Source: a virus
Strand: one strand, 5' to 3'
DNA length: 64,000 nucleotides
IMG/VR virus record: IMGVR_UViG_3300045988_174509
This document shows positions 1 through 53,409 of the stretch, piece after piece. A program made the position numbers and the translations under genes. Numbering within the stretch: the first letter of the stretch is position 1; each line of letters opens with the position of its first letter. The notes beneath the pieces are model-generated. The model had not been told where the DNA came from. It saw only the letters and a program-made list of their open reading frames with translations, and did no database searches.

Positions 1-470
1 ATGCCAAGGTGTACGGGAATGCCAAGGTGTCCGGTGATGCCGAGGTGTACGGTGATGCCGAGGTGTACGGGAATGCCAAGGTGTCCGGGAATGCCTGGGT
101 GTACGGGAATGCCAAGGTGTACGGGAATGCCAAGGTGTCCGGTGATGCCGAGGTGTACGGTGATGCCGAGGTGTACGGGAATGCCAAGGTGTCCGGGAAT
201 GCCTGGGTGTACGGGAATGCCAAGGTGTACGGGAATGCCAAGGTGTCCGGTGATGCCGAGGTGTACGGTGATGCCGAGGTGTACGGGAATGCCAAGGTGT
301 CCGGGAATGCCTGGGTGTACGGGAATGCCAAGGTGTCCGGTGATGCCAAGGTGTCCGGGAATGCCTGGGTGTCCGGGAATGCCTGGGTGTACGGTGATGC
401 CAAGGTGTCCGGTGATGCCAAGGTGTACGGTGATGCCAAGGTGTCCGGGAATGCCAAGGTGTACGGATGC
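1..470 (+). repeat. ~26 tandem near-identical 18-nt repeats (coding)
   Basis: Units such as atgccaaggtgtacggga, atgccaaggtgtccggtg and atgccgaggtgtacggtg repeat continuously. Confidence 0.9.
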
Positions 471-14505: not shown

Positions 14506-14553
14506 TTTCCAAGATTTATTTCCATATAATAATTTACTAATACTAAAGCTTTT

Positions 14554-16591: not shown

Positions 16592-16628
16592 GCCTACCAT
16601 GCCTCGGTGTGGTAGGCTTTCTTGTATT
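16592..16628 (+). terminator. Intrinsic terminator
   Basis: Stem gcctacca/tggtaggc plus tttcttgtatt. Confidence 0.5.
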
Positions 16629-16675
16629 CGGAGCGCAACACAGCTCCAACCTGTTTACATACCTCATATTACATT

Positions 16676-19600: not shown

Positions 19601-22600
19601 ATTACCAAGAGCGTAGGAGGTAAGACCTGGGTGCCTGAAAGCATTAAGAAATTCCGGCAGGGGAGCTCCACGATTGCCAGCAAGGTGACGGGGAACACCA
19701 CGCGGGAAAGGCTTTCCAGTTTTGGCGCGCTCTCTACCAAGGAGAAAGTGCTCTACATGGGCAACAAGCTCTACCAGGGCGGGAAGCTGGCCGTGGAAGG
19801 CGCGGCTGAAGAACTGACGGATGAATTTTCCGAATGGCTCTGGACCTCGCTGGTGAAGGATGGCTACATTGCCGAGGACCAGATCGGGACTACTGCCGAG
19901 ATTGCCGCCGCCGCCGTCAAGATTGCCGTGCTTGGTGCCATCGGTGAAGTCACGGCATCCCGGCTTCCGGGAGCCAGGGAATCCGTGCCTCCGGAAATCC
20001 TGGCACAGGCACAGCGGGCGGATGTAGGCATCAAGCCCGAAGAAACCCTGCATGCGCTCAATGCAATCTCCATAGACATGCGGACGGAACTGGAAACCAA
20101 GCAGGGTACGCTGGCCCAGACCATCGCCACTGCGGGGGACAGCGCAGTAGAAGTGCTCAATACCAACCTCTCCGAGCCAGTGAAAGCTGAATACGTGGAG
20201 GGCAACAAAGCCGTAGCCGCCAAGGCCGGGGAGATCGTGGACAACATCAGCAATGCTCCGGTTTATGTCAACGAGCTGGCCGCTGAGGTGGGAGGGGAAG
20301 CCCTGACTCCCGGAGTCCTGGAAGCATGGACTCAAAACAGCATCGTCCTCGGAGCCCAGAACGTAACCCTGCTGAGAAGCTTTGCCCAGAATCTCAAGGA
20401 AGAGATAGCCACGGCGAGCCCGGAAGGGAGGGCCCGGCTGGTAGAGAACGCCCTCTCCAACATCACGGAGCGGATGATCAACCCCACCCCGGAGAAGAAG
20501 GAAATCATGCGAAGCATGGTGGACCAGATTGCGGAGATTTACAACGAGGCTCCGGTAGAGCTTACGCAAGTGGATGACTCTCTTAACTTTATGCCCACTG
20601 GCAATGAGACGGTGGACGTAATTGGGGAAGTAGCCAGCATGGCTGGACCTGCCGCGGTGACTACTGGAGTAGCTACCGAAGCTCCGGCTCCTCCCATTCA
20701 GATTCCCCAGCTTCCCGGAGCTTCTGCCCTGGATACAAATGCCGAGGTAGAAGTATTGGGAACCCGGATGCCTGTGCGAGACATCGCCCCCGTCAAGCCG
20801 GAGCCCCTGGAATCTCCTACGGCTCCGCCTCTTGCCGAGCTGACTGATGCCTCCCTTTCCGGTCCCCTTGATTCCGCCAGCCCGGAAGCCAGGGAGTGGG
20901 CAACCCAGGTAATCACTGGCCTGGAATCCTTCGACCCGGAAACCGCGCAATGGATTACCAAGGGGCGGGAAGCCACGACCTTGACGGATGCCGAGGTTGC
21001 CCGCATGGTGACGCTGAACCAGCTTACCGGGCCTGCGGCCCCCCTTACTGTAGATGATACAGGAAGAACGCTTGTCACAGAACCTAATGCTATCCGGTAT
21101 AACAATCGCGCGCCTGCCGAAATCGCAGGTGAGCTGAACGATTACCAAAGTCAAGTTCTTTCTTTCATGCCGGAGAAATCCGGAGACGGTCTTGCCCTGG
21201 TGGATCGGTTCCTCAGCACCCAGGAAATCACGCCCCAGGAGCGCAGAGTCCTTGAGTCCGTGAGGGAGTATCTGAGAAAAAACAATCTGGGATTCGGGGT
21301 TTCACGGATTCATACCGACATGATTGAAAGCTGGAATGCTCCGGCCCTGGTTGACTTTGCCGACCCGGACTCTCCGCTCATGGTTGTCAACACTTTATTT
21401 GCCCCGGTTGCCGGGGACTTCAAAAACACCTTCATCCATGAGGCCGTGCATTTGGTGGACCAGCACCAGCGGATGACCAACCCTGACTACGGGAACCAGC
21501 TTCGCAGTATGAAGCTGGCTCTCCGGGAAAACTGGAACGAGCTGGTGGGCATCCTGGAAAAGGAAAGCCAACAGGCCCCGGATAATGAGAGCAGGCTGGC
21601 GATAGAAACAGCGATCGAAGACATGGCCTATGGCCTTGACATCAGTGAGGCCCAGGCCGTGGCGAACAACGACAATGAATTCGCCTCCGTGCTTCTGAGC
21701 AACCCGGTGTTCCGCCATCTTGCAAGTCAGATGAAAGAAGGAGGAGAATCAATTACATTTGAAGACCTTTCCTCCCCGGCTACCCTGGCGGCCCTGGCGG
21801 AGTCAGTAACCCCTCCGTCTTCTTTCCTTGGCCGGGTATTTGAAAGCCTGAAGAATGTCTTCAATAAAATCCTTGGCCGCTACAAGAACCTGGAAAAGGA
21901 TAACTTCTCCCTGCTGAAAGACATGGGCGAAGAGTGGACGGCATGGAAGGAGCGGCATTCCGAGGCCGCGCGCAAGCTGGATGAGGCGGCACCCTTGGAT
22001 GGGAGCCGCTGGCTGATACCGGATGATCCCACAGCCATGAAGAACACCGGGTATCAAGATGCCGGATTGATCCTTCGCACGCAGGGCCAGCAAATCCCCA
22101 CTCCTACCGCAGACACAGGAACCGCCTTCTCCCCTACCCGCTACGGATTCATGGGGGAAGTGGGAGGCAACCTGGGTGAGAACTGGTTTAACCTCACCAT
22201 GGCTGGGGCGCGGCAAGCCGCTACATGGTTCAACATGGGCGCGGCCAAGTTCGGCTATCAGAAAGCGATCAACAAGCTGGACTCCCAGCAGGTGCCTGTC
22301 TTTACTGAGCAGGATTCCCTGCGGGTGCGGGAGCAGATGACGGCCCAGGACATGGGCCAGCGTTATGTCATCCAGCAGGTGCACCAGATTGCCAACTGGG
22401 TCAATGCCATGAAGCTCAAGCCTGAAGAGCAGAAGTCCCTGGCTATTGCTATCCGGGACTACGTGGGCAACACGGACAACCTTGCTCGGCCCAAGGAAAT
22501 CCAGCGCATTTATGCGGACACCCAGACCCAGCTTCAGCAGGCCGCCGTGGACCGGGACCGGGCCGTGGCCGCCGCCAAGGAGGGGGTTGTCAGGACCAAG

Positions 22601-25600
22601 GCCGCCTATGAGAAAGAGCTTGCCGCCATTGTGGGGCGCATCCGTGAGAGCACCAGCGAAGGAGTGATCCTTGGCCTGCGCTCTGGGCTGGACACTGCGC
22701 GGAGATTCATCCGCGACAAGTCCATGCCGCCCAAGAACGATGCGCTGGCCCAGATGCAGGCTCTGATGATAGCACGCCAGCAGGAAGTGAACCAGATCAA
22801 CGAGCAGGTCAAGGCATTCAAGGCCGCTTCACCCGAGTTTGCCGATGGAGTGGACTTGCTCCGCCGCGAAGTAATTGCGAACCTTAACGAGGCTCTGGCC
22901 GGGGAGCTTGACCTTGCCGCTCGCCAGATTTCCCGTGACCTTGCCGAGGGGGAAACCTCTCCGGTAGAACTCCTGAAGGAAATCCGCAACAGCCTCGGGC
23001 TCAAGGATATAGGGAAGCTCGGAGACATGGGTTCCGCCATAGAAAAGGCCGTGAAGAATTACCGCAAGCTGGCCCTGGCCTCCGCTCCTGAAGCGGCGAA
23101 TGCTTTGCACAATATAGCACTGGCCCAGGAACGCGCAGGCCGGGAGATCGCCCAGGCGAACGCCGTCTATGAGGGACGCACCCGCCGTGCTGGCTATGAC
23201 AGCAAGGGGATTTACCATCCTGCCGGGACCATCTACCAGAACCGGGACTTCCGCATTGAGCAGGAACAGCGGCACATGCAGGCCGAGTACCTCAAGAGGA
23301 GGGAGCGCGCCAGCGAATTGCTGAACCAGTATCCGGCCATCAAGCAGAGGCTCACCCGCGCCCGCAAGCAGATTGCCCAGAACCAGTATGACATCTACAG
23401 CTTCCTGGGGAGCGAAGCCGGAAGGCTGAGCGCGGCGGACATGAACTGGCTCCATCGCACCTACCTTGCCGTAGGCGCGGGGAATGCTGACGCTTACCGA
23501 AAGGCCATGATGGAAGCCCTGGAAAATCCTCAAGGCAAGAAGGTTTCCGAGTACCAGCTTGCCCGGATTTACAGTGCCACCCGTGCCTACATTGAAGAAA
23601 ATAATTCCAAGGTGAACGGGTATATCAGCACCGTGGTGGACCGGATGAAGAACTATGCCGCCCTGTATGACCGACTCACTGATTCCGGGATTCAGGTTGA
23701 CGGGAAGCCCTCCACCTACTCCGACCTGTTTAAGGGAATCCCCGGCGTGGAATCCTTACAGCAGGGAATCCTGAAATTCCTGAATGAGAATTACAGTGAA
23801 ATGCAAATCTTGTCGGACCTGAAGCACGGGGACAACATGGTGGAAATCGTGGACAAAGCCCTGGCGGTATCCCGGTATCTGGGAGACCAGCATCCCGGGG
23901 AAAGAAAGAAGCTGAGGGACCAGCTCAACCAGATCAAAAGGCATCAGGCCGACTACGCCAGGGACGCCTTCCTGCTGGAGAGCATGGGGGTAGAAGAGCA
24001 TGACCTCCGGGGGTTTATCACCAGTGCCGAAGACACAGCGGAGCTTGCCGCCCGGCTGGAACAAACCGGATGGGTGGATTCCCGGACGGTCAAGACAATC
24101 ATGGATGCTCCCGAGGCTACCATGAGCCAGCGGGTGACAGCGTTGATAGACTACCTTCGCGCCAAGGCGGACCTTCAGATGCAACGCCTGGGTCTTGGCT
24201 ATACCATTGACCCTGAAAAGCTTACGTCGATGAACCGGACAAGCCTCCGAAAAGGGATGGTAGAACTGGCAAACCAAGCCTTCGCCTCCACCCTCAGCAA
24301 GAAGAGGAGCACGGAGAACCCGCTGGCCCTTCGGAAAAACCTGCCGCTCTCCGAGCGCATCATCCTGGGTGAGCTGGGTGATGCCAGCGTGTCGGAAGCT
24401 ACCGGATTGATTGAAGCATCCCTGTCCTACCAGAAGGATACGCTGGTCAACACCGTCATGAGCGATGAAGCGGCCAACACCTTCCTGAAGCTGGGACTGG
24501 TGACGGCCCGGCCCAAAGGTGATGAGGATGTCCTTCTCTCCTTCAAGAATTCCCACAGCAAGCTCAATGGGACGTATGCCAGCCATGAACTGGCGGACTC
24601 CCTTTACCGAATCTTCAGGCCTACAGATGACGTGATGGCAAACGAAAGCACATGGCCCGGCATCAAGAAATACTGGAGCACCAACTCGGTGGGCACGATC
24701 CAGAAGCTGGGAGGCATGGCGAACATCGCCGTGCTGATCAAGTCCCCGGCTTCCACGCTTCGCAACCTCTATGGTACAGCGATGCAGGGGATCAACTCCG
24801 GCATTTGGTTCCCGGCTTATGGGCTCAAAGAGGTAAGCGGGATGGCCGTTGATCTGGTCCGCATGTGGAAACTGGAAAGGGCGGCCAAGGATAATACGCT
24901 GGCCGGAAGGGAAGCCCAGGAAAAACTCCTGGAAGCTGAAGAACGGTGGTCAAAAAAAATCAAGCACTACTATGACCTTGGCTTGCTGGACAATGATACC
25001 ATGCAGGTGTTCCGCAATCTCTGGAAGAGTGAAGAATTCCAAAAGGCCATAGAAGGAAAGATTGATCTGACCCTGGATGAATCCGATGGGCTTACAGACA
25101 TTGTGGTAGGGGACCGGAAAGAAAGGACGCTGGCAAACCGGACGTTCCGGTTCCTCACTACAGGGATCATGAAGGGGGCGACCGTGGCCTACAGCATCCC
25201 GGATGCCATGGCAAAGATTGCCAACTACACCCATGAGGTACGCAACAGCAGGAACCTGATGGCCGTGCAACTTGAGCGCGCCAAGCTGACGGAAGAAAGC
25301 AAGCGCACCCCATGGCAGAAGGAGCTGGTAGAAGCCAGCGCGGACGAGAATAAATGGAACGCACTGGTGGAACACACCGCGGCGGACCGGACGAAGAACC
25401 TGTTCCCTACGGGGACGCGCACTCCGAAATGGGTGAAGACCGTGGGGCTTGTCGCCCTTCCCTTCTTCATGTTCCAGTATCACACCGCCAACTCGGTGGC
25501 CTACAACCTGGGCTACATGGTGCAGGAATTGCAGGAAGGAACCTGGGCTCTCCGAAATGGGATGACCAAGGAGGGGAGCAAGCTGATGGCCAAGGCTTTG

Positions 25601-26845
25601 AGCCGGGCGGCGGGGACTGCCGCCGCCGTGGTAGCCCAGGAAGAAATCCTCCGCTTCCTCTTCCAGTTCATGGCCCAGGGTGCCCTCAAGCTTCTGGATA
25701 AGGACGATCAGGTCCAGCTGATTACCAACGCAGAAGTCATGAAGACCGCATCCAGGCTCGGACTGATCCCGGACTACGACAAGTTCGGCACCAACCTGGG
25801 GTTCTTCAACAAGGGCACGGGGCGGTGGAGCTACATGAACCTGGAGTATGCCGCTCCGTTTAAGAACGTAGCCTCCCTGGTCAGCAGTGCCTGGAAGATG
25901 GCAACGGCGGAAGATGAAGGAAAGAAAGAAGGCTGGGATGAAATGGAGAACCTGATGGAGAGCACCATAGGGAGCCCCTCCATGCTCCTGTCTCTGATGA
26001 ACACCTACCTATTCGACCCGAACGACAAGTTCAACTACAAGGCCGCGCCGGAAAAATCAGGGAACATCAGCCTTGCGGATGCCGTGGGGAATGCCGCCCT
26101 GATTTCCTTCGGGTTCCAGCCAAGCCTGGGACATGGCTACACCTACAAGCCCCTGGAGCGGATCGCTACGGCGATCAACAAGGAGACTCCCGTCTGGTCT
26201 GCGGTTTCTTCCATCCTCCACCAGAGCTTTGAGGATGATCCCAACAACGTGTGGTATGAAACAGCCCTGAAGCATGCGGGGTTTGGCATGCGCCATGGCA
26301 AGTCCTTTGTGGATGCCGCCGCCAACGGGGTGAAGACCGCCAAGGTTTCCGACAACCACGCCAAGCGGCTCCGTGTTCTCAGTGAAAGGTATCTGGATAT
26401 TCCTATTGACACCCTGAAAGAGTTCACTACCTTTGACATAGCCCAGAGGAAGGAAGCCTATGCAGACCTGGGGAGTACGCTTAACGGGATCAAGGCCCTG
26501 ACTGAAACACTGTACGGAACCACCGCCGGGCGCACTGCCTTCCGGGATATTCTTGACCGGAGCAATGTCAGCCTGAAGACTGCGCGCTGGGCCATGCGCG
26601 GAGTCATGCCGGAGGTGATCACCAAGGACGCAGTAGTGAGTGCCTTTGAACGGCTGGACCGTGAAGCCCGGAAGCCGGGAACCAGTGAAGCCCGGAAGCC
26701 GGGAACCAGTGAAGCCCGGAAGCAGAGAATCCAGGAGCAGAAGAAACTCATCCGCCGGGTTTACCGGGAACGGGGAGTCAAGGTAACAGACCAGATGGAA
26801 TCTGCAAGTACGTATAAAACGTTATTTAAAAATCTGGAGCAATAA
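16676..26845 (+). CDS. Giant (~3,390 aa) Ala-rich coiled-coil protein with an internal HExxH motif; candidate virion-packaged/ejected or tape-measure-like protein
   Basis: Single uninterrupted ORF. N-terminal EAR(A/Q)E(R/K) repeats, a central FIHEAVHLVDQH motif and C-terminal EARKPGTS x2.6 repeats. The ATG at 16676 is preferred over the track's TTG at 16622, which lies inside the upstream terminator. Confidence 0.6.
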   Translation: MAIDFSTLGPIQPGLDARQESQARARTNFAQRQEDRGRTKAVEPLKAMADFDSLLAKELGSLEKTQKTEARQEKTEARAERSEARAERSAERAETSFEQGQKKWDWALNDRAREEANRDLAKITKSSTSGINAQSIEELEDWVKTPETELYDLKTASSDENALGIIASRLGVEKIEGALPTPTTSEDVETPPYFLSRQGLALRPDGSYIVTNKFIDSVARSKADSSKLASAVSKQLNAGVKASNRDGLSSTPITATATEEEIKEMIDTIRSGDKKVHAAVKAIYDKHIPEDKKTQASEAQTETETPEAQEGKTPVGEPGSGGSSADETPGNFTSTVLDEAEWLATNPAKFTELTQQYLNSLVEQGMNAPEVQRAELAGQRAVARENYIRGVETLLERTFQDVDPKEAGEALRNEARVAEKVLDMYGGAPAEALAQIERRTEELAKAHPGNESLRNQDKAKAIYEYLDSVIPGFNASGAEADALQQIVEENIVGATKTPSLNDAATAAMRHYRSSLGQVSDMTGTVMEGATRFNIPGLRYENKSDDEATRNPLEKMTWEPGKGGWKFGFKRSNGSMEDSFSISYEGLRSYMAEHKLNQQDALNSIAFPTTLGDVAYAKDGLLFARNPYTGEVEENATLAMNPTALYDNSLYQKSLEGLRSSGMSDEEIAAVDKKYQDAKARSAAETVQGLLQTYSEMQSMAELTGSETLGKILEPDSSVDFRIFHARMKRDRMSDTFILEQWNDKEEQWDRQVQRVIQGTQRKAVDMGVTAGLAIAQQLNGVLGPRDSAATLSNQWKIVNESREAATRVTQSNLFTEWGTELAFLAVQMAGTGAAGIAGRTAGEALATQGIRRVAAGMALRSQAAATVARPGIAQSAEVAFSRTMEGIVHGATRSWGATAGTQAAIFSQVAPYAYGDIFSTQLDRAIKHAETLPQDQRGAYLSDAQNLANLRATAGAVIVGMASMAINSRAGMNTFITKSVGGKTWVPESIKKFRQGSSTIASKVTGNTTRERLSSFGALSTKEKVLYMGNKLYQGGKLAVEGAAEELTDEFSEWLWTSLVKDGYIAEDQIGTTAEIAAAAVKIAVLGAIGEVTASRLPGARESVPPEILAQAQRADVGIKPEETLHALNAISIDMRTELETKQGTLAQTIATAGDSAVEVLNTNLSEPVKAEYVEGNKAVAAKAGEIVDNISNAPVYVNELAAEVGGEALTPGVLEAWTQNSIVLGAQNVTLLRSFAQNLKEEIATASPEGRARLVENALSNITERMINPTPEKKEIMRSMVDQIAEIYNEAPVELTQVDDSLNFMPTGNETVDVIGEVASMAGPAAVTTGVATEAPAPPIQIPQLPGASALDTNAEVEVLGTRMPVRDIAPVKPEPLESPTAPPLAELTDASLSGPLDSASPEAREWATQVITGLESFDPETAQWITKGREATTLTDAEVARMVTLNQLTGPAAPLTVDDTGRTLVTEPNAIRYNNRAPAEIAGELNDYQSQVLSFMPEKSGDGLALVDRFLSTQEITPQERRVLESVREYLRKNNLGFGVSRIHTDMIESWNAPALVDFADPDSPLMVVNTLFAPVAGDFKNTFIHEAVHLVDQHQRMTNPDYGNQLRSMKLALRENWNELVGILEKESQQAPDNESRLAIETAIEDMAYGLDISEAQAVANNDNEFASVLLSNPVFRHLASQMKEGGESITFEDLSSPATLAALAESVTPPSSFLGRVFESLKNVFNKILGRYKNLEKDNFSLLKDMGEEWTAWKERHSEAARKLDEAAPLDGSRWLIPDDPTAMKNTGYQDAGLILRTQGQQIPTPTADTGTAFSPTRYGFMGEVGGNLGENWFNLTMAGARQAATWFNMGAAKFGYQKAINKLDSQQVPVFTEQDSLRVREQMTAQDMGQRYVIQQVHQIANWVNAMKLKPEEQKSLAIAIRDYVGNTDNLARPKEIQRIYADTQTQLQQAAVDRDRAVAAAKEGVVRTKAAYEKELAAIVGRIRESTSEGVILGLRSGLDTARRFIRDKSMPPKNDALAQMQALMIARQQEVNQINEQVKAFKAASPEFADGVDLLRREVIANLNEALAGELDLAARQISRDLAEGETSPVELLKEIRNSLGLKDIGKLGDMGSAIEKAVKNYRKLALASAPEAANALHNIALAQERAGREIAQANAVYEGRTRRAGYDSKGIYHPAGTIYQNRDFRIEQEQRHMQAEYLKRRERASELLNQYPAIKQRLTRARKQIAQNQYDIYSFLGSEAGRLSAADMNWLHRTYLAVGAGNADAYRKAMMEALENPQGKKVSEYQLARIYSATRAYIEENNSKVNGYISTVVDRMKNYAALYDRLTDSGIQVDGKPSTYSDLFKGIPGVESLQQGILKFLNENYSEMQILSDLKHGDNMVEIVDKALAVSRYLGDQHPGERKKLRDQLNQIKRHQADYARDAFLLESMGVEEHDLRGFITSAEDTAELAARLEQTGWVDSRTVKTIMDAPEATMSQRVTALIDYLRAKADLQMQRLGLGYTIDPEKLTSMNRTSLRKGMVELANQAFASTLSKKRSTENPLALRKNLPLSERIILGELGDASVSEATGLIEASLSYQKDTLVNTVMSDEAANTFLKLGLVTARPKGDEDVLLSFKNSHSKLNGTYASHELADSLYRIFRPTDDVMANESTWPGIKKYWSTNSVGTIQKLGGMANIAVLIKSPASTLRNLYGTAMQGINSGIWFPAYGLKEVSGMAVDLVRMWKLERAAKDNTLAGREAQEKLLEAEERWSKKIKHYYDLGLLDNDTMQVFRNLWKSEEFQKAIEGKIDLTLDESDGLTDIVVGDRKERTLANRTFRFLTTGIMKGATVAYSIPDAMAKIANYTHEVRNSRNLMAVQLERAKLTEESKRTPWQKELVEASADENKWNALVEHTAADRTKNLFPTGTRTPKWVKTVGLVALPFFMFQYHTANSVAYNLGYMVQELQEGTWALRNGMTKEGSKLMAKALSRAAGTAAAVVAQEEILRFLFQFMAQGALKLLDKDDQVQLITNAEVMKTASRLGLIPDYDKFGTNLGFFNKGTGRWSYMNLEYAAPFKNVASLVSSAWKMATAEDEGKKEGWDEMENLMESTIGSPSMLLSLMNTYLFDPNDKFNYKAAPEKSGNISLADAVGNAALISFGFQPSLGHGYTYKPLERIATAINKETPVWSAVSSILHQSFEDDPNNVWYETALKHAGFGMRHGKSFVDAAANGVKTAKVSDNHAKRLRVLSERYLDIPIDTLKEFTTFDIAQRKEAYADLGSTLNGIKALTETLYGTTAGRTAFRDILDRSNVSLKTARWAMRGVMPEVITKDAVVSAFERLDREARKPGTSEARKPGTSEARKQRIQEQKKLIRRVYRERGVKVTDQMESASTYKTLFKNLEQ

Positions 26846-35969: not shown

Positions 35970-35984
35970 ATTGAGATTCTATAA
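35970..35984 (-). promoter_or_regulatory. Conserved element, variant TTATAGAATCTCAAT (- strand)
   Basis: Directly abuts the ATG at 35967. Confidence 0.45.
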
Positions 35985-37280
35985 TCAAGATTGTTTCTTT
36001 GTAGACCGCCCCCTTGTATCAAACGCCGGGATATTTAATTTTCTCCTTGCTTTTCCGATAACTTGTATTGATTTGCCTGTTTTATTAGCGACTTCTTTAT
36101 CAGTCATTGTGCCCAGCAGGGATTTAATGTATTCGTCCCCTTCTATTGTTTCTTGCAAGCTTTTTTCCTCACGTAATGCCGGAACATTCAATTTCTGTCT
36201 AATTCTTCTTACTGCCTCGTCATCAATATTAAATTTTTCGGCTATTACTCTATCATAAACTTTCCCAAGCATAGATAAGAGTTTTTTACGTTGGTCCGGT
36301 GAAAATCTTTCTAAAATGCTTTTACTGAAAGGCTTAATTTTGTTCTGTTCTCTAAATTTTTTAATTACATATACGCTGTACCCTGTTTTTTTTGCAATTT
36401 TTAAATCTGATACTCTTCCCAATAAATTAAGAATTATATCCTTGTCCGCATCCTTAATGGGAGCTGGAGCAATTTTTAATTTTCTACGGTTCCGCGCTAC
36501 AACATTAAGCGATATTCCAAGCCTTTCAGCAATTTCGCTATCAGGAATTTTCCCAAGCATGGATAGCATTTCTTCGCGTTTCTCTTCGGGGATTTTAGTA
36601 TCAGATAATGATAGAATGCCCATCTTTTTTCTAATAAGCGCAATTCCTGCCTTGGAATAACCGAATTTTTTAGCAATTTCATCATCCGGGGTCTTTCCAA
36701 GCATGTTAATTAACTCTTCGGGATACTCTTTTTTCTTGTGTGGTTTATTTGGGTCTCGTGGCTGACGGGGTTTACGCGGCCCCCTATATGACTTAATCCC
36801 TAATTTCTTTCTAAGGTAGGCTACTCTGGAATTTGAGTATCCAAACTTCTTGGCACACTCCGAGTCAGGAATTTTTCCGAGCACTGCAATAAGCTCTTCA
36901 TCGTGTTGGATGCGGATTGCTTCAGGGCTGCAATACTTTTTGATACCTAATTTATAGCGTTCAGTCTGGACCGTGACGCGCGCTATTCCGAGTAGCTCGG
37001 CGATTTCCAGGTCAGGTTTTTTGCCCAACATGGACCGCATTTCTTCACGCTGTTCGTGAGAAAGAATGCGGTGAAACCTCTTTTCTCGGTATTTTTCATG
37101 CAATAACTCCATGAGCAATTGCATGTATTCAGGCGTGGGATGTGGTTTTTTAGTATTTAGCCACTTCCAAACAGCATCTTCCGTCACCCGCATCATCTGC
37201 GCGGCCCTTTTTACAGCTTGGGTAGGACTTGGGAGATTGTTGGCCGTTTGAAGCCAGTCGATAAATTCTTGTGCGGTCAT
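35985..37280 (-). CDS. Protein with ~85-aa N-terminal domain plus seven tandem ~46-aa sigma-region-4-like HTH repeats
   Basis: Seven copies of the pattern LG(K/R)xPDxEIAxKxGxSxxxVxxxRxKLxI: ELLGIARVTVQTERYKLGI, KKFGYSNSRVAYLRKKLGI, KKFGYSKAGIALIRKKMGI, ERLGISLNVVARNRRKLKI, KKTGYSVYVIKKFREQNKI, EKFNIDDEAVRRIRQKLNV, NKTGKSIQVIGKARRKLNI. Confidence 0.6.
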   Translation of the reverse strand: MTAQEFIDWLQTANNLPSPTQAVKRAAQMMRVTEDAVWKWLNTKKPHPTPEYMQLLMELLHEKYREKRFHRILSHEQREEMRSMLGKKPDLEIAELLGIARVTVQTERYKLGIKKYCSPEAIRIQHDEELIAVLGKIPDSECAKKFGYSNSRVAYLRKKLGIKSYRGPRKPRQPRDPNKPHKKKEYPEELINMLGKTPDDEIAKKFGYSKAGIALIRKKMGILSLSDTKIPEEKREEMLSMLGKIPDSEIAERLGISLNVVARNRRKLKIAPAPIKDADKDIILNLLGRVSDLKIAKKTGYSVYVIKKFREQNKIKPFSKSILERFSPDQRKKLLSMLGKVYDRVIAEKFNIDDEAVRRIRQKLNVPALREEKSLQETIEGDEYIKSLLGTMTDKEVANKTGKSIQVIGKARRKLNIPAFDTRGRSTKKQS

Positions 37281-37321
37281 GGTGAGAAAGGAGGGGCGGC
37301 AATGCCGCCCCTGGGGGTTAT

Positions 37322-37648
37322 TTAGTGAGCTTCAACGCGGGAAGCGTCCTGCGTCCAGTTGAGGTTTTCTCCTTCAATTTCTTCGCCCGTCATTTGTTCA
37401 AAGACCATGTAGATTTCAACCTTGTTCCCTTCTGCATCATAGCCGGGAGCAGACCATTCTTCCATATAACTGCCGTCTTCGTATTTGTCCGCATAGGAGC
37501 CAGGGAAAACCCTGTTGGTGTATTCCATCTGGCGCGCTGCATAGTAGGTCTTGCCTTCGAACTTGTAGCTGCCAAATTCACGTTCAAGAGCGGTCAGGTT
37601 GATTTCTTCTCCGTCTTCCGTGGTGATGATTTTGTTATCGTTCATCAT
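37322..37648 (-). CDS. Small highly acidic, Tyr-rich protein (108 aa, net charge about -15); candidate DNA-mimic/anti-restriction early protein
   Basis: 24 D/E against 9 K/R. It is the first gene downstream of the strong leftward promoter and has an AAAGGAA Shine-Dalgarno sequence. Confidence 0.45.
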   Translation of the reverse strand: MMNDNKIITTEDGEEINLTALEREFGSYKFEGKTYYAARQMEYTNRVFPGSYADKYEDGSYMEEWSAPGYDAEGNKVEIYMVFEQMTGEEIEGENLNWTQDASRVEAH

Positions 37649-37782
37649 TTTTGTAATTCCTTTCTTTCAGGTTTTATTCTTGGCAGGGCGTTGCGCCCTT
37701 GCATGATTTTTTGATAGCATTACGGAGGGTTCCGTTCAACCGATTTTTTGCAGGGAGCCGGCAAGTGATTTAAAATGAAAGG

Positions 37783-37810
37783 ATTATAATTGTGTCATAC
37801 AAGGTGTAAA
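37783..37810 (-). promoter_or_regulatory. Strong sigma70-type leftward promoter
   Basis: On the - strand: -35 TTTACA, a 16-nt spacer, then a perfect -10 TATAAT. It lies ~125 nt upstream of the acidic-protein gene. Confidence 0.55.
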
Positions 37811-38570
37811 AAAGTGTGAAAAGGTGCTTGCAATGTAAAAATCCGGCATTTGCGGCACAAAAATCCAGCGTCAAAATCAGGCATGGGGGAGTATCGTAAA
37901 AAGTACAATAAGCCATGAAGCCGGGAAACCCGGGTTCCGGGTTCCGGGTTTGGAGGATTAGGCAATAATTGAGGCAGGTGCAAAAGCAGGAATGATTCAT
38001 AAAATTTTATGGCTGGTGTCCCATATTTGAGCCGGATTCCATAAAATTTTATGGAACTTTGGACAGTTTCAGGGTGTCAGGTATAAAATTTTGTAAAAGC
38101 AGGGAGAGGCGGGTGCAGGGCGTCAGGGTAACTTAGAATCAGGGAGTCAGGGGATCAGTTTGGAGGATTAGGCAAGAATTTGAGAAGAAAGGAAGGCCCT
38201 TCTTTTCTTCTCATATCATCAACGTATCATGATATGTTGATATGTTATGATTCACAAGCAAGCCCGCAATTTATACAGGCGTATAAATATGCACCCCTGA
38301 ACCCCTGATTCCGCCCTTCCCTGCACCCCGCTTCACACGTCAAAAAATACAATAACCCCCCTATTTCCGGCTATGGAAAAATTCAAACGTAACATAATGG
38401 ATTGAATCTTAACGTCTAGCACGTTCATACTTCGCATAATATGTGTAATGCAAAATCGGAAGCACGATTCAGGCATAACAAGAAAATACATAAGAAGTTA
38501 TGAAGGAAATTACCCTGAAATTGGAAGCCGATTTCCGCCATACGGGAGGTTTACAGGGCCAGGGGTTCAA

Positions 38571-38613
38571 GGTTAGAGTGGCTCAAAGGTTCAGGGTTCG
38601 AGCAACTCTAACC
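38571..38613. other. Imperfect hairpin
   Basis: Stems ggttagagtggctc / gagcaactctaacc with one mismatch and a 15-nt loop. Confidence 0.4.
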
Positions 38614-38625
38614 CGGAATCAGGAA

Positions 38626-39100
38626 ACATACCACCACGGTTGAGGGGGCTCACGGGTTCAGCGAGTGGAGGTATAAATCTTTGGGTCGGGAATGCCCTGG
38701 AGGAACCATTTTTGGAGAAAGGGGGATGTATGGACCTAGAAGGCGGGTTTACCCCCAGTTGGGTACTCTGTACCGGACCTACCCCAAAACACAGTTTTAG
38801 GCGACCACCCTACATGAAAAAACCGTATTCTGGCATGAGCATGGTTCCCAGGCATGCGTAAAGGGCGGATACCACCACGGGGGAAGGGGTGGAACTTGGG
38901 AACCGGAAAGGGCGGGATCAGGGGTTCAGGGGGTCGGAAAAAATCGGTGAAAACGGAAAAATGGGAGGTATGGACCTAGAAGGCGGGTTTACCCTCTTTC
39001 CGCTACAGAGTACTGGACCGACCCCAAAACGCAGTTTTAGGCGACCACCCTACATGAAAAAACCGTATTCTGGCATGAGCATGGTTCCCAGGCATCCTCG
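38626..39100. repeat. Two tandem ~240-bp degenerate direct repeats
   Basis: Both copies start ATACCACCACGG. They share ggtatggacctagaaggcgggtttaccc and a 75-bp core (ccccaaaac[a/g]cagttttaggcgaccaccctacatgaaaaaaccgtattctggcatgagcatggttcccaggcat) identical except one base. Confidence 0.8.
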
Positions 39101-39298
39101 CGTGCGCATGCGCGTAGGCATGGGCATGGGCTGGCAGGGGTCGGCATACATGTCGGAAGAAAGGTCGGAAAAAGGGTCGGCATGAGCGGGGCTCGCCTAC
39201 GCATACGCGTACGTACGCGCACATGGCCCGCGTCACCCGCGCATGTGTGGGCATGTGCAGGCGTATGCGCTCGCCCGCCTCAGCGCGCCCAGGAAACT
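39100..39298. repeat. GC-rich GCATG-laden imperfect inverted-repeat block containing 4x GTCGG at exact 12-bp phasing
   Basis: cgcgtgcgcatgcgcgtaggcatgggcatgg at 39100-39130 is inverted relative to cgcctacgcatacgcgtacgtacgcgcacatgg at 39193-39225. GTCGG occurs at 39140, 39152, 39164 and 39176. Confidence 0.6.
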
Positions 39299-39400
39299 TT
39301 TATAATTCAATATTATAATAAAACCCATATATATATATATAGTATTTTTTAACTTTTTTATTTTTAGGGTTCTTGTATTGATTTTTAACGAGTTATGAAG
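39299..39400. other. AT-rich block with a (TA)7-8 run; candidate DNA-unwinding element
   Basis: Contains ttttataattcaatattataataaaacccatatatatatatatagtattttttaactttttta. Confidence 0.45.
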
Positions 39401-39495
39401 ACGGATTTTGTGAAGTGAAAAGTCAGAGCCCCTTTTCACATGCCTTGACAAAAATGGAAATATGTATGAATTTGGTCTTTTTTATACTTTAGAAA

Positions 39496-39510
39496 TTAGA
39501 ATGATTCTAA
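39496..39510. promoter_or_regulatory. 15-bp palindrome TTAGAATgATTCTAA (inverted pair of the TTAGAAT half-site)
   Basis: Arms ttagaat/attctaa are perfectly complementary. Confidence 0.5.
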
Positions 39511-39532
39511 AAACTTTTACATACTTTTTTTA

Positions 39533-39735
39533 TCGACATTTTTACGACATTTTTACGACGTTTTTTTGACCCCATTTTTGACCCCATTTTTGACCCCATT
39601 TTTGACCCCATTTTTGACCCCATTTTTGACCCCATTTTTGACCCCATTTTTGACCCCATTTTTGACCCCCTGAATCCGTGATTCCGCCCTCCCGTTCCAC
39701 CTCCATTTTTGACCCCCTGAATCCGTGATTCCGGA
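39533..39735. repeat. Iteron array: 3 x cgacattttta (11 bp), 9 x gaccccattttt (12 bp) and 2 x ccctgaatccgtgattccg (25-bp-class direct repeat)
   Basis: Direct reading. gacccc occurs at 39568, 39580, 39592, 39604, 39616, 39628, 39640, 39652 and 39664, with a tenth copy at 39711. Confidence 0.85.
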
Positions 39736-39779
39736 TACCTCCGGACCCCCGTCACCGGAAACCCCTTTTTATTTTTCTC

Positions 39780-39807
39780 TTGACAGGATTTCCGTCCGGA
39801 TTATCCT
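39780..39807 (+). promoter_or_regulatory. sigma70-type promoter for the primase gene
   Basis: -35 TTGACA at 39780-39785, a 16-nt spacer, then -10 TATCCT. The ~15-nt leader has no Shine-Dalgarno sequence. Confidence 0.45.
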
Positions 39808-39828
39808 GGCTCCACATTAATACATCCC

Positions 39829-42800
39829 ATGACACCCCTATATATCGACGACATTCATATCTCTATTGCCGCCCCATCCGCCCCGCAGTGGCTCACTGCC
39901 ATGGACGTAAACAAAAGGTTCTACCATGTCGGTCATTGCAATAATGCCTTTAATGCGGGGCTGAAGGCTATTGCCCTTGGCTGGATGAAATTTGAGGACG
40001 CAGAAGGCTTTCCGCTCACTCCCGATTTGCGCAGATGCGGCTATATGTGCGACGCCTATGCAATGGACAAGGGCGTGAAACTTCCCGCCCTCCTGCCTGA
40101 TGCCTATATAGATAGTATTTCCAAATGGCGGGAAATCTCCCCCGAGGCGGGCATCCCCAAATCCGTGCTCCCAGCCTTCGTGCCGTCAGTCTCCTTCAAT
40201 TACAAGTTCATTCGCAAATGGCAGAAGGACAACCAGGATGACCGGAAGAAGTACCTGAGCGCGAAAGCCTTGGCCGGACGCGATCCCCGGGCGTGGAGCC
40301 ATACGGGCCTGTTCTGCATTGACATTGACGCCGGGCACGACGGAAACCCTGAAGCCCCTGACGCCCTGTACGCCCAGGCCCATGCCAATGGCGCCTTCTC
40401 CCTGATGCCCGGATTCCTTTTTTCCTTTGCATCCCCGAATCAGGGAATCAAGCTGATGTTTAAAGTGGACCCGGTTCTGCTCGCGCTTCTCAATACCCCG
40501 GAAGGATGCGGAGATGCGGACCTGGAATCCCCGGAAGTATCGGGGGAAGCCCTCGCCCGGGTGCAGTCTTTGCGCGAGAAGAACCACGCCATATGCTTTT
40601 ACGCTATCGCCGCGATGGTTTCCCGCCATACCGGGCTTGCCGTGGATTTATCCTGCTCCGATCCCTGCCGCCTCCAGTTCATGTTCCGGGCCCATGCCTC
40701 CCGGTATGAGCTCAATCCCTGTCTCCTTGATTCCGAAGTCCCGGATTCCCTGCTTCCTGGGTTCAGCATCGACGGAGCCGATGCATGGAGGGAGTATGAG
40801 GAGACAGCCGCCCGCCGCGGAGCCGGAGGCTCCGCTGTGCAACCCCGGAATTTTGAGCCCGGAAAAGACAATAAGCCCGACAGTATTTTGAGGTTTGCCG
40901 ACTGGCTCAAATCCAGGGGGTGGCTGAAGGAAGCCCAGCACGTTTTGGACATGACTCCCGGACCCCGGGGCTATTATTCGTTCTGCCTCCAGTGCCGGGA
41001 TGTAAGCAGTACGCCTTCCGGACCTCGTGACTTGCTCCTGTGGCTTGACAGGGATTCCCCCGGGAGGTTCGGCTTCAAGTGCCTGCATGAATCCTGCCAG
41101 AGCCGGGCCAAGGTCAAGTACCCGTTCTGGTATCTGGCAAAGCTCTACCATGAGGAGCAGGAGGCGTTGAAGATTGCCCATGAGGCATCCAATTCCTATC
41201 AGGTGCCTGAGCCCATCCGCAAGTTCATCCGCACCAGAAGCGAGCTCTCCGAGCACAAGATCATCATTGGGAACATCGGGATGGTCCAGTCCTCCTTCAA
41301 GACTCCCGATGCCCTGCCGAACCTGTTCGAGTGGGATGAGAAGACCGGAGCCCTGCTTACTACGGCCCTGAATGTGTCGGGCTATGTGCGCCACTGCATG
41401 GGATTGTATCCCGTATATAACAAGGACCTGTGCTGTAACGAGTTCATTTCTCCGGATACGGGCATGTGCTTCCCGTTTGACGCGGTGCGCAAGGCCGTCC
41501 TCGGCTACTTCATGACCCGGTGCAACAAGGACGTGTCCAAGCAGTTTCTTTTTACCTCCCTGCATGAGGCCCAGGGCCTTTCCTATTCGCCGCTGTTTGC
41601 GCTGGGGTACTGGGAGGAGTGGGACGGAGTTCCCCGGGTGGACCAGTATATCGACCTGCTGGAGTGGGACCCGGCCCACCAGCCGCCTAAAATCTTAAAG
41701 GAGGATGGCACGCCCATGTCGGGGCAGGAGTGGAAGCGGCATGCCCTGCGCTCCTGGCTGGTGAATTGCTGGGAGCGCACCGTCTGCTCGGTGATCGGCT
41801 CGGACAAGGTGCCGACCTTCGGTGGCCGCCCCTCGCACCTGATGCCGGAAAACAAGATGATCATCCTCTGCTCGGAGACCCAGGGGGTGGGCAAGACCCA
41901 GTGGGTGAAGGGGCTGGTGGGGAGCAAGGCCCAGGAGTCGCTGGTCATTGCCGATAAGCTGGAGCAGAGCAAGGACCATGACAAGATTTCGGCCATCAAG
42001 CCGATCTTTTTCCTTGACGAGATGGAGAAGACTACGAAGAACGAGGAGATGAACTCGCATCTCAAGATGGTGCTGACCCGGAGCCACATTGACATTCGTG
42101 ATCCCTATGAGAAGGACATCATGCACAGGAAGGTGGTGACTTCCTTCATCGGGGCGACCAACGAGCCAAAGCCTTTGAGTGATGCCGATGGAAGCCGCAG
42201 GCTTGTGTTGCTTTATGTGAGGAGGCCCGCCGATAAGATGGGCAGTGTAGGCAATTGCCCCGAGCATGTGAAGGAGATGCAGTCGCTCAATGTCGCCCAG
42301 TTCTGGGCCGAGATCAAGTACCTGTCCGAAACGGCCAAGCCCGGGGAGTATGCGCTGACGCCCCAGGAGACCAATCTTGTGCATTACAACCAGACCACGG
42401 CTTTGGAGAACGGGGAGTTCAACCACCTCGTATCCTACCTCCGCTTCATTCCCTCAAACTACCCGGCGGCGGACGGGAAACAGCTCCGCAAGATGATCAA
42501 CGGGGCGTACAACGATCCGGCCAATATCATCAATTCGGTCCGCAGGTATCTCGGGGAGCGGGAGATCAAGGTCTCCTGGCGCGGGAGCAAGCAGTTCCGC
42601 CAGCATCTTCTGGCCCAGGTGCCCGAGGGGTGCTCTCCCACCTACTATACAGGCAAGCGCGGGTCTCCCCGTGTCGCCCTGTACCCGGTTATGCTTGAAT
42701 CCGAGTTCGAGCTTCTGGCCTCCGATACAGCCAGGAAATCCTGGGCTCGGGACAACCCGGAGGAGGCGGCGAAGTATTACAAGCGGATCAAGTTCGGCCT

Positions 42801-42915
42801 GGGAGATGGTTCCCTGGTTGACGTGGACCCGGCGCAGGCCGAGAAGCTGGACATCTACAAGCCCTACTATGACCAGTATATGGAGGACAGTCTGGAAAAT
42901 GAGGACGAGGAGTAA
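39829..42915 (+). CDS. Primase-polymerase (AEP/PrimPol-like) fused to a D5-like P-loop helicase (1,028 aa)
   Basis: LFCIDIDAGHDG matches the AEP hhhDhD motif. Walker A is SETQGVGKTQW and Walker B is IFFLDEMEK. Confidence 0.6.
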   Translation: MTPLYIDDIHISIAAPSAPQWLTAMDVNKRFYHVGHCNNAFNAGLKAIALGWMKFEDAEGFPLTPDLRRCGYMCDAYAMDKGVKLPALLPDAYIDSISKWREISPEAGIPKSVLPAFVPSVSFNYKFIRKWQKDNQDDRKKYLSAKALAGRDPRAWSHTGLFCIDIDAGHDGNPEAPDALYAQAHANGAFSLMPGFLFSFASPNQGIKLMFKVDPVLLALLNTPEGCGDADLESPEVSGEALARVQSLREKNHAICFYAIAAMVSRHTGLAVDLSCSDPCRLQFMFRAHASRYELNPCLLDSEVPDSLLPGFSIDGADAWREYEETAARRGAGGSAVQPRNFEPGKDNKPDSILRFADWLKSRGWLKEAQHVLDMTPGPRGYYSFCLQCRDVSSTPSGPRDLLLWLDRDSPGRFGFKCLHESCQSRAKVKYPFWYLAKLYHEEQEALKIAHEASNSYQVPEPIRKFIRTRSELSEHKIIIGNIGMVQSSFKTPDALPNLFEWDEKTGALLTTALNVSGYVRHCMGLYPVYNKDLCCNEFISPDTGMCFPFDAVRKAVLGYFMTRCNKDVSKQFLFTSLHEAQGLSYSPLFALGYWEEWDGVPRVDQYIDLLEWDPAHQPPKILKEDGTPMSGQEWKRHALRSWLVNCWERTVCSVIGSDKVPTFGGRPSHLMPENKMIILCSETQGVGKTQWVKGLVGSKAQESLVIADKLEQSKDHDKISAIKPIFFLDEMEKTTKNEEMNSHLKMVLTRSHIDIRDPYEKDIMHRKVVTSFIGATNEPKPLSDADGSRRLVLLYVRRPADKMGSVGNCPEHVKEMQSLNVAQFWAEIKYLSETAKPGEYALTPQETNLVHYNQTTALENGEFNHLVSYLRFIPSNYPAADGKQLRKMINGAYNDPANIINSVRRYLGEREIKVSWRGSKQFRQHLLAQVPEGCSPTYYTGKRGSPRVALYPVMLESEFELLASDTARKSWARDNPEEAAKYYKRIKFGLGDGSLVDVDPAQAEKLDIYKPYYDQYMEDSLENEDEE

Positions 42916-52789: not shown

Positions 52790-52821
52790 GAATAAAATCA
52801 GTAGCGTAACTTATTGATACT

Positions 52822-53409
52822 ATGGCATATGTGGATAAAGAGCTTGTAAAGAAAGCTATCAAGTTTTATCGGGATGGACTCCCGATTGAAGTGATTGAAA
52901 ACCTCACCCGGATTCCCAAACCCCGTTTGGAATCTATTCTTGGTGAAGTAGAGCTGACGAAAGACGAACTGCTGGCCCGCAAGGAGTCTCTTGAAATTTT
53001 TTCCCAGTCCATCCAGGAGAAAGTCATTGAGAGAAGGACCAGGAGAACCGAAGTGGAATCCGAGATTCTTGGAAGCATTGAATCCAATTTTTCTACTTTC
53101 ATGAAGCAATCTTTTGAGAGGCTTTGCAGGGCTTCCGGCACGTTGCCTTTGGATAGCTTCAAGGATGTCGCATCCCTTGTAGGAGCTATGGGGAAAGCCA
53201 GTGAAATCTGGGAGCGGTTCAACGATGCCGTAGCCAAGCGAGACCTCAAAGCCATGCAGGACATCATGGCAACGATGGAGCTTGAGGTGACGAATATTAC
53301 AGTGCAGACAGCGGTTGATTCCGAGGGGCGTATTAAGCTTGATGCTGATGGGAAACGAGTTGTGACGGAAGAGGCCCAGGCCAGGAAAATTACTTTGAAG
53401 CCTCTTTAA
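52822..53409 (+). CDS. Hypothetical HTH/coiled-coil protein (low-confidence terminase small subunit candidate)
   Basis: N-terminal LPIEVIENLTRIPKPRLESIL HTH-like segment. Confidence 0.3.
   Translation: MAYVDKELVKKAIKFYRDGLPIEVIENLTRIPKPRLESILGEVELTKDELLARKESLEIFSQSIQEKVIERRTRRTEVESEILGSIESNFSTFMKQSFERLCRASGTLPLDSFKDVASLVGAMGKASEIWERFNDAVAKRDLKAMQDIMATMELEVTNITVQTAVDSEGRIKLDADGKRVVTEEAQARKITLKPL

Follow-up and report, generated by a model that had tools for sequence, protein, structure and literature searches.

A noncoding control region with a putative replication origin, probable early promoters and an exchanged conserved block in a human-gut phage

Introduction

We analysed a stretch of phage DNA 64,000 nucleotides (nt) long, IMG/VR record IMGVR_UViG_3300045988_174509 (hereafter the window), which makes up most of a source genome of ~68 kb from human-gut metagenomes. 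The source is an uncultured, virulent-type phage of the human gut. Our subject is a noncoding region of 2,180 bp (37,649-39,828), bounded on the left by the gene of a protein of 108 amino acids (aa) and on the right by that of a putative primase-helicase of 1028 aa (hereafter the helicase gene). A preliminary description of the window had taken this region as a whole for a probable replication origin and regulatory hub. We found that it most likely holds a replication origin and early promoters. To the fuller interpretation, drawn from sequence comparison, of a control region that would combine an origin, an early transcription module and a functional conserved block, we give a probability of roughly 0.6. 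The preliminary description was right in outline (a noncoding region, divergent promoters, an origin by the helicase gene), but it over-unified a mosaic. The kind of element is well known; what is new is the conserved noncoding block that is exchanged between phages.

Results and Discussion

Relatives, gene context and noncoding status

The phage family is rare and has no cultured or GenBank relative. GenBank phages gave no DNA match, and a protein search among them returned only distant VapE-domain matches; GTDB genomes contained no relatives by protein or DNA pattern. Among 5.8 billion proteins, the helicase family formed only four clusters at 90% identity. Searches for further relatives yielded two contigs from IMG/VR and three more from JGI/ENA metagenomes, the latter three all truncated at the iteron array upstream of the helicase gene. 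Lineage A consists of the window and many near-identical strains. Lineage A' is IMG/VR contig 175860, with a helicase 93% identical to that of the window, and L019 is a truncated representative of a lineage at 88%. The helicases of lineages B (L021, L022), B' (L024) and C (L023) are 62-64% identical to that of the window.

Rightward from the noncoding region lie the helicase gene and genes for a family A DNA polymerase, a second helicase, an exonuclease, a resolvase and the large terminase. On the other side is a leftward block of small genes, 10 kb long, none of which could be assigned to a known family. These annotated genes bear out the claim that the region divides a leftward block from a rightward replication module. 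The 108-aa gene is preceded by AAGGAA; no Shine-Dalgarno-like sequence stands before the ATG of the helicase gene (39,811-39,828) in the window or the relatives.

Between the two bounding genes there is no open reading frame (ORF) longer than 98 aa. The eight ORFs of the region gave no credible match to PHROG, and the only matches there (E 0.001-0.009) were of low complexity and came from the translated iteron array. Some gene callers report an ORF of 47 aa at 38,500-38,643, the start codon of which is kept in distant relatives. We rejected it as a gene, as the conserved blocks ATTTyCGCCATACGG and CATACCACCACGGT lie in different frames in lineages A and B, owing to 1-nt indels. Since these blocks shift frame between lineages, the conservation across this ORF is at the nucleotide level. 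ORFs of 137 and 147 aa called in L021 and L024 were also rejected; they could be aligned with each other only with large gaps. The absence of any credible ORF, asserted earlier, was thus confirmed.

The region is also the most repeat-dense stretch of the 64 kb. Repeated 11-mers occupy 546 direct and 143 inverted positions, compared with 46 ± 48 and 31 ± 32 in other segments of 2.2 kb. With the iteron array excluded, 349 direct and 118 inverted positions remain, so the excess is real and far beyond chance. All of the repeat classes (at least six) listed in the preliminary description were recovered, some of them 1-10 nt away from where they had been placed. Diversity-generating retroelement (DGR), CRISPR-like and retron readings of the repeat pairs were rejected: the differences between copies are not adenine-specific, regular spacers are missing, and the annotated genes include no reverse transcriptase or cas gene. 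The positions of the features are collected in Table 1.

Table 1. Features of the noncoding region and its bounding genes (window coordinates)
Feature	Position	Strand	Remarks
108-aa gene	37,322-37,648	minus	left neighbour of the noncoding region
5' leader of leftward operon	37,649-37,782	minus	block ATGATTnTnTGATAGC conserved in L014, L021 and L024
Leftward promoter TTTACA-16-TATAAT	37,810-37,783	minus	11/12 consensus matches
AAAATCMRGC, three copies	37,838, 37,860, 37,873 (to 37,882)	plus	pattern match
23-nt direct repeat GTTTGGAGGATTAGGCAATAATT, two copies	37,948-37,970 and 38,158-38,180	plus	repeat search
Three palindromic ATAAAATTTTAT boxes	37,998, 38,040, 38,081 (to 38,093)		~42 bp apart
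Candidate rightward promoter TGGACA-18-TAAAAT	38,060-38,089	plus	-10 overlapped by third palindromic box
15-bp polypurine/polypyrimidine hairpin	38,181-38,213	plus	z = -4.1
24-nt near-perfect palindrome ATCAACGTATCATGATATGTTGAT	38,218-38,241		identical in L014 and L021
M2, 262-nt core	38,426-38,687	plus	conserved in all lineages; flanks unalignable
Two ~240-bp tandem units	38,628-38,868 and 38,869-39,095	plus	both units in L014
GC-rich (68%) tract	39,096-39,290		with alternating purine/pyrimidine runs
Inverted iteron-like GTCGGAAAAA units	39,152-39,173	minus	inside GC-rich tract
AT-rich candidate unwinding element, 236 bp	39,291-39,526		duplex stability
(AT)7	39,326-39,341		in AT-rich element; (AT)n run conserved in four lineages
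Conserved box TTGATTTTTAACGAGTTATGAAG	~39,376-39,400		in AT-rich element; conserved in four lineages
Inverted repeat GTGAAAAG/CTTTTCAC	39,415-39,439		in AT-rich element
Class-2 iterons TTTTT(A)TCGACA / TTTTTACGAC, TTTTTACGACA x3.5	39,527-39,565	plus	
Class-1 iteron array TTTTTGACCCCA x9 (8.9)	39,563-39,670	plus	100% identical
31-nt repeat CCATTTTTGACCCCCTGAATCCGTGATTCCG, two copies	39,656 and 39,703 (to 39,733)	plus	inverted relative to 38,909-38,940
Helicase promoter TTGACA-16-TATCCT	39,780-39,807	plus	T-rich tract precedes
1028-aa putative primase-helicase	39,829-42,915	plus	presumed initiator

A putative origin beside the helicase gene

No duplex in the window is less stable than the AT-rich element, whether measured over 100 or 200 bp; at 100 bp the element lies about 4 standard deviations from the mean. 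Its GC content is 17% over 100 bp, and it is the AT-richest stretch of the window at 100, 200 and 300 bp. Between the window and L014 (lineages A and A') it is 99% identical. The box in its spacer reads TCAATTATCAATrrGTTAyG in lineages B, B' and C and TTGATTTTTAACGAGTTATG in lineage A.

Short repeats of opposite orientation lie on the two sides of this element. The class-2 iterons on its right are inverted relative to copies at 38,933, 39,152 and 39,164. The pattern TTTTTMCGAC has minus-strand copies at 38,933, 39,152 (one mismatch) and 39,164 and plus-strand copies at 39,539 and 39,550. All four perfect copies in the window fall within the region, the minus copies to the left of the AT-rich element, 120-350 bp from its edge, and the plus copies to its right. 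The perfect repeat TTTTTGACCCC is likewise confined, with ten out of ten copies at 39,563-39,716. More generally, inverted iteron-like copies form clusters at 37,868-38,345 and 38,933-39,173, opposite in orientation to the repeats at 39,527-39,716.

Units within the main array are all perfect, but strains differ in how many they carry. There are nine class-1 units in the window and five in L027 (3,757-3,850), in strains otherwise identical over 2.8 kb. L045 (4,630-4,845), which has a 100-N gap inside the array, carries four class-2 units compared with three in the window, and the class-2 copy number differs in L014 too. The unit also changes with the helicase lineage: it is ATTTTTGACCCC in the window, TTTTTTGACCCC in L014 and TGTTTTTGCCCC in L019, and in the lineages at 62-64% sets of inverted GACAC or GACAT flank the AT-rich spacer. 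The order of the parts is shared, namely (AT)4-7, an AT-rich spacer with its box, repeats of a T-tract followed by GAC, a promoter of the form TTGAC(A/T)-16..18-TATnnT, and the helicase gene; the AT-rich segment led by (AT)n was seen where the contig of a relative reaches far enough upstream. The promoter is conserved in this form in L001, L019, L021, L024 and L023. Repeats and promoter lie directly upstream of the helicase gene in five lineages, with helicases 98, 93, 88 and 62-64% identical to that of the window. What is directly observed is how the sequence is built, that it is statistically exceptional, and that it is conserved and co-varies among the relatives.

The presumed initiator has a superfamily 3 (SF3)-type helicase domain at residues 676-855 (Pfam VapE-like_dom, 4e-18; DUF5906, 4e-7) and belongs to PHROG helicase and primase families; NCBIfam gave no match. 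A conserved DxD...H motif and a Cys/His cluster lie in its N-terminal half. In the preliminary description the gene was labelled a primase. The helicase domain stands by profile, and the primase part of the name relies on the PHROG names and the N-terminal motifs.

From this arrangement we infer an origin in the right ~550 bp of the region, at ~39,140-39,720. The 1028-aa SF3 helicase would bind the T-tract and GAC repeats, that is, the opposed TTTTTMCGAC copies and the one-sided TTTTTGACCCCA array. Once bound, it would oligomerise and melt the 236-bp AT-rich element from the (AT)7 edge; it would then load itself and prime synthesis, as SaPI Rep and P4 alpha do. As only 64-250 bp separate the array from the helicase promoter downstream of it, binding would also feed back on transcription of the helicase gene. 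Protein binding, melting, priming and regulation are all to be read here as predictions. For the pairing of initiator and iterons, the evidence is good and circumstantial, and is not proof.

The closest precedent is found in the Staphylococcus aureus pathogenicity islands (SaPI), where a self-loading Rep helicase binds inverted iterons on either side of an AT-rich centre and every Rep variant has its own specific iteron sequence (PMC9371898). SaPI and other phage-inducible chromosomal islands (PICI) share with our region the short repeats in opposite orientation on both sides of an AT-rich centre (in the phage, those of the TTTTTMCGAC type), the adjoining gene of an initiator-type helicase, in SaPI sometimes fused to a primase, and a repeat unit that changes with the helicase lineage while position and order are kept. 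However, the SaPI origin takes up ~100-200 bp, whereas the origin-like segment of the phage is embedded in 2.2 kb. Some likeness to phage P4 was also found. P4 alpha is one multidomain primase-helicase-origin-binding protein, and in P4 ori and crr short sites of a single type are repeated in both orientations, in two clusters separated by more than 1 kb. Repeated iteron-like sites in both orientations and in separate clusters occur in our phage as well, but P4 has an unrelated octamer sequence and an unrelated alpha primase domain, and P4 ori is not known to lie beside an AT-rich global stability minimum of such size. In iteron plasmids such as pSC101, R6K and RK2 and in the O-some of lambda, the iterons are 17-22 bp long with a spacing near the helical repeat, and the initiators are not helicases; the lambda ori lies inside gene O. 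These systems resemble the phage region in having direct repeats with an adjacent AT-rich unwinding element, in the possible autoregulation by an initiator bound near its own promoter, and in a box of the integration host factor (IHF) type in the AT-rich region of lineages B, B' and C. DnaA boxes are usual in these systems, but the phage region has none.

Several points weigh against an origin of this kind. DnaA boxes (TTWTNCACA) number 0 in 37,650-39,830, and no exact IHF consensus was found in the region of the window; an IHF-consensus box occurs in the AT-rich spacer only in lineages B, B' and C. The GC skew tracks gene orientation, is confounded with transcription and is uninformative. In the 1028-aa protein no DNA-binding domain was recognised, there was no Pfam match in residues 1-674 or 858-1028, and no match to PDB by sequence or profile was found; it shows no detectable similarity to solved Rep structures. 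Its AlphaFold model, built from an alignment of five sequences, had a mean predicted local distance difference test (pLDDT) score of 36.8 and was unusable. SaPI iterons are 5-6 nt long, in 6-12 copies, and lie downstream of rep, whereas the units of the phage are 10-12 nt long and its main array is a one-sided perfect tandem of nine upstream of the gene. Finally, the conserved block described below makes up ~40% of the region and is not accounted for by the origin model.

If mapped, the origin and early promoters would give a handle for replicons, host finding and the infection programme. For origin specificity, the series of initiators and iterons offers a natural experiment, in which three 12-bp units 1-3 bases apart are paired with helicases of 88-98% identity.

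Modular exchange among related phages

By alignment with the relatives, the region is a patchwork of at least four modules that appear to have been exchanged between related phages by recombination. Module M1 extends from 37,650 to 38,425; over 37,703-38,425 it is 88-97% identical to lineage B, despite a helicase identity of 62%, and only 47-75% identical to A'. M2 (38,426-38,687) is the sole part that can be aligned in all lineages, with 74% identity between A and B. M3 (38,628-39,290) exists in two unrelated versions, type A with the 240-bp units and the GC-rich tract and type B of ~350 nt. Measured in windows of 150 nt, type A shares 85-97% identity with A', and the helicase gene shares 89-98%. 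Across ~615 nt, L021 and L024 have M2 and M3 type B in common at ~99% identity, with one difference in 364 nt aligned; the helicase genes of these two phages are 57-81% identical and their left modules unrelated. M4 (39,291-39,807), which contains the AT-rich element, the repeats and the promoter, travels with the helicase gene.

The density of repeats had been taken as the signature of one origin. This does not hold, as the modules are exchanged separately and the likeness to an origin is limited to ~39,140-39,720. A distinct conserved block, the function of which the origin interpretation does not explain, comprises the 262-nt core and the 240-bp units, the latter earlier counted as origin parts.

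In L021, a gene of the IS605 OrfB/TnpB type with a Cas12f-like TNB domain was seen at 13,837-15,033, directly downstream of the lineage-B replication helicase.

The conserved noncoding block

M2 starts with an invariant 26-nt box, CATACTTCGCATAATATGTGTAATGC, which occurs once in the window. A 13-bp hairpin or inverted repeat at 38,571-38,614 (z = -4.2) shows one compensatory change from G-C to A-T. In the tandem units that follow, cores of 138 nt (38,718-38,855 and 38,958-39,095) are 89% identical at a spacing of 240; the full extent of the 240-bp units relies on weaker similarity beyond these cores. The centre of each unit (38,755-38,785 and 38,995-39,025) is a hypervariable quasi-palindrome of ~30 nt, which is reverse-complemented between the units and has 5-10 differences in ~30 nt from a relative with identical flanks. 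This pattern looks like template-switch mutation at a hairpin.

The GC-rich tract contains alternating runs at 39,099-39,116 (18 nt), 39,198-39,225 (28 nt) and 39,238-39,249. They are three of the six alternating runs of at least 12 nt in the window, including the two longest, and a fourth is the adjacent (AT)7. A GC palindrome described earlier is present here, but it is an imperfect inverted repeat (39,200-39,269) with 24-nt arms, 75% complementary, and z = -2.3.

The block from 38,426 to 39,290 would be functional, most likely as an origin-auxiliary or transcribed element. A role of its own is favoured by the presence of its core in every lineage, by conservation irrespective of reading frame, by the compensatory change in the hairpin, by the abundance of purines and G on the plus strand of both versions and by the near-identity seen between diverged phages. 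If it proved to be a true RNA or an origin enhancer, the exchanged block would represent a new class of phage noncoding element.

Probable early promoters and operator-like sites

The claim of divergent promoters was well founded, as the leftward and the rightward promoter were both found and are conserved. The leftward site is also present in L021 and its block is conserved in L014, i.e. in lineages B and A'. A GC hairpin at 37,683-37,702 in the leader (DNA fold z = -2.9) is followed by a T-run when read on the plus strand. M1 would set early transcription by means of this strong sigma-70-type promoter for the small-gene block, together with the candidate rightward promoter. The window has five matches to TTGACW-N15-18-TATNNT, none of them on the minus strand, compared with 0.7 expected; with this enrichment, the phages apparently use a host sigma-70-type polymerase. 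We considered whether an ORF of 3407 aa (16,622-26,845), which spans one sixth of the genome and has no match in Pfam, PHROGs, NCBIfam or PDB sequences, encodes a virion RNA polymerase; the early promoters would then be phage-specific. This reading was rejected, given the lack of family matches and the enrichment of sigma-70-type promoters instead.

Several sets of repeats accompany the promoters. AAAATCMRGC has four matches in the window compared with 1.2 expected; at the corresponding place L014 has TGGGGTCAAAAA, the reverse complement of the iteron unit of the window. The 23-nt pair GTTTGGAGGATTAGGCAA(T/G)AATT, formerly placed at 37,938 and 38,159, is present at 37,948 and 38,158; L014 and L021 likewise have two copies, and L024 has two that are inverted. 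The earlier CATAAAATTTTATGG pair was recovered at 37,998 and 38,040, with a degenerate third copy at ~38,081. All three occurrences of ATAAAATTTT in the window are at these palindromic boxes, and three equally spaced boxes exist in L014 and L021 as well. The hairpin at 38,181-38,213 has a single G-T pair, a wobble only on the plus strand, and its counterpart in L014 is an 11-bp stem of different sequence (z = -3.7). The palindromic boxes, the 24-nt palindrome and the 23-nt pair are conserved as sets and are best read as candidate operator sites.

In L034, a 1.8-kb AT-rich cassette (853-2,667) is inserted in the noncoding region at the point equivalent to 37,901-37,908 of the window. It runs rightward, has four or five small genes (157, 96, 80, 63 and 36 aa; one weak NikA-like match), is flanked by duplicated GTACAA and ends in its own terminator, a clear hairpin with seven T. 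Since a rightward cassette is carried there, M1 seems to tolerate insertions and probably drives rightward transcription too.

To the left of M1, the 431-aa multi-helix-turn-helix (HTH) protein and the 108-aa protein form a two-gene cassette (35,984-37,645). It is 96-99% identical in ~10 IMG/VR contigs that are otherwise unrelated to the window, with sharp edges at both gene ends. The close relative 175860 lacks it and has a different gene of ~600 bp in its place. The cassette looks like a recently exchanged or mobile regulatory module.

Alternative explanations

The region might serve as a terminus or entry signal at the DNA level, such as a packaging, terminal-repeat or injection-stop-like site. 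Contigs from more than 15 independent assemblies end at 38,752, ~39,392 or 39,603-39,730, which correspond to the first 240-bp unit, the AT-rich segment and the iteron array, and the region borders the 10-kb block of small genes, which are possibly pre-early. There is a precedent in the injection stop signal (iss) of T5, a large untranslated region rich in repeats, inverted repeats and palindromes (bioRxiv 10.1101/866236), as is the phage region. However, T5 iss is defined by eight ordered DnaA boxes within a 10-kb terminal repeat, and these boxes are absent here. The contigs break at exact repeats or in extremely AT-rich sequence, which short-read assemblers fail to resolve in any case; two contigs traverse the whole region (the window and NODE_54, which appears as L027 and L033), and one scaffold bridges it, with an N-gap in the array. 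Moreover, the terminase gene is 11 kb away, contig ends showed no overlap, and no terminal repeat was detectable. We thus consider a terminus very unlikely. It is the iteron array and the 240-bp units that make assemblies break at this locus and the genomes appear as linear contigs of 64-68 kb. Transcriptional control DNA with a neutral minisatellite, while replication starts elsewhere or by recombination or transcription, would agree with the conserved promoters, the palindromic operator-like boxes and the adjoining multi-HTH regulator gene. The array unit contains TTGAC, the -35 core, and the copy number is unstable, as in a variable number tandem repeat (VNTR). Nevertheless, three lineages keep an array of 12-bp period at this position even though their units differ, the global stability minimum beside the array is 99% conserved, and a promoter has no need of inverted flanking repeats. 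It is therefore quite improbable that the region is purely regulatory.

Another explanation concerns only the block from CATACTTCGCATAATATGTGTAATGC (38,426) to ~39,290, which might be a self-contained, horizontally exchanged noncoding RNA gene transcribed rightward. It would have a shared 5' domain of 262 nt and alternative 3' domains, two 240-bp units in type A and ~350 nt in type B. Its product might be a large structured RNA, or else a G-rich transcript that acts as a primer or forms an R-loop and thereby activates the adjacent origin; ColE1 RNA II, T4 oriF/oriG and the T7 primary origin are analogues of the latter. Such a gene would explain why the block is transferred as a unit between phages with diverged replication genes. 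The 262-nt core is kept in all lineages between unalignable flanks, the conservation is at the nucleotide level with frames that differ between lineages, and the M2 hairpin has its one compensatory change (G-C to A-U in an RNA). The ~99% identity over ~615 nt between L021 and L024, with helicase genes only 57-81% identical, would also fit; but it may reflect recent recombination or chimeric assembly and not constraint. In both unrelated versions the plus strand is rich in purines and G (GC skew +0.12 to +0.20, purines 0.57-0.60), and G-T wobbles in two stems are tolerated on the plus strand only. The minimum free energy (MFE) z-score of the plus strand is -3.3 in L021; however, it is only -1.1 in the window itself, and the z-scores are weak and alike on both strands. 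RNAalifold consensus folds are equal as well (-38 vs -39 kcal/mol, with 4-5 'compensatory' pairs on each strand), and palindromic protein sites yield the same 'compensatory' pattern. With ~4 independent sequences, covariation has no power, and the 240-bp unit varies too little among its four copies to be informative. No match to Rfam 15 reached the gathering score in the whole window, and none at E ≤ 10 was credible in the region or L021, where E values of 0.5-10 belonged to chance-level matches of miRNA-type hairpins only. The window has no tRNA or tmRNA, and no convincing promoter or terminator bounds the block. Because the fold scores are weak, the strands equal and the independent sequences few, we do not claim an RNA, and we regard such a gene as unlikely.

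Other observations

A DnaA box (TTATCCACA) and an IHF consensus (TATCAATAAGTTA), both of them perfect, are separated by 11 bp at 52,807-52,838, where a 195-aa ORF begins immediately behind the terminase gene. This pair may be due to chance. The same TATCAATAAGTTA box is also found in the AT-rich origin spacer of lineage C.

An 18-bp tandem repeat at 1-466, with ~26 copies, 86% matches and higher-order periods of 54 and 108 bp, extends beyond the first position of the window. It lies inside an ORF and probably encodes a hexapeptide-repeat protein.

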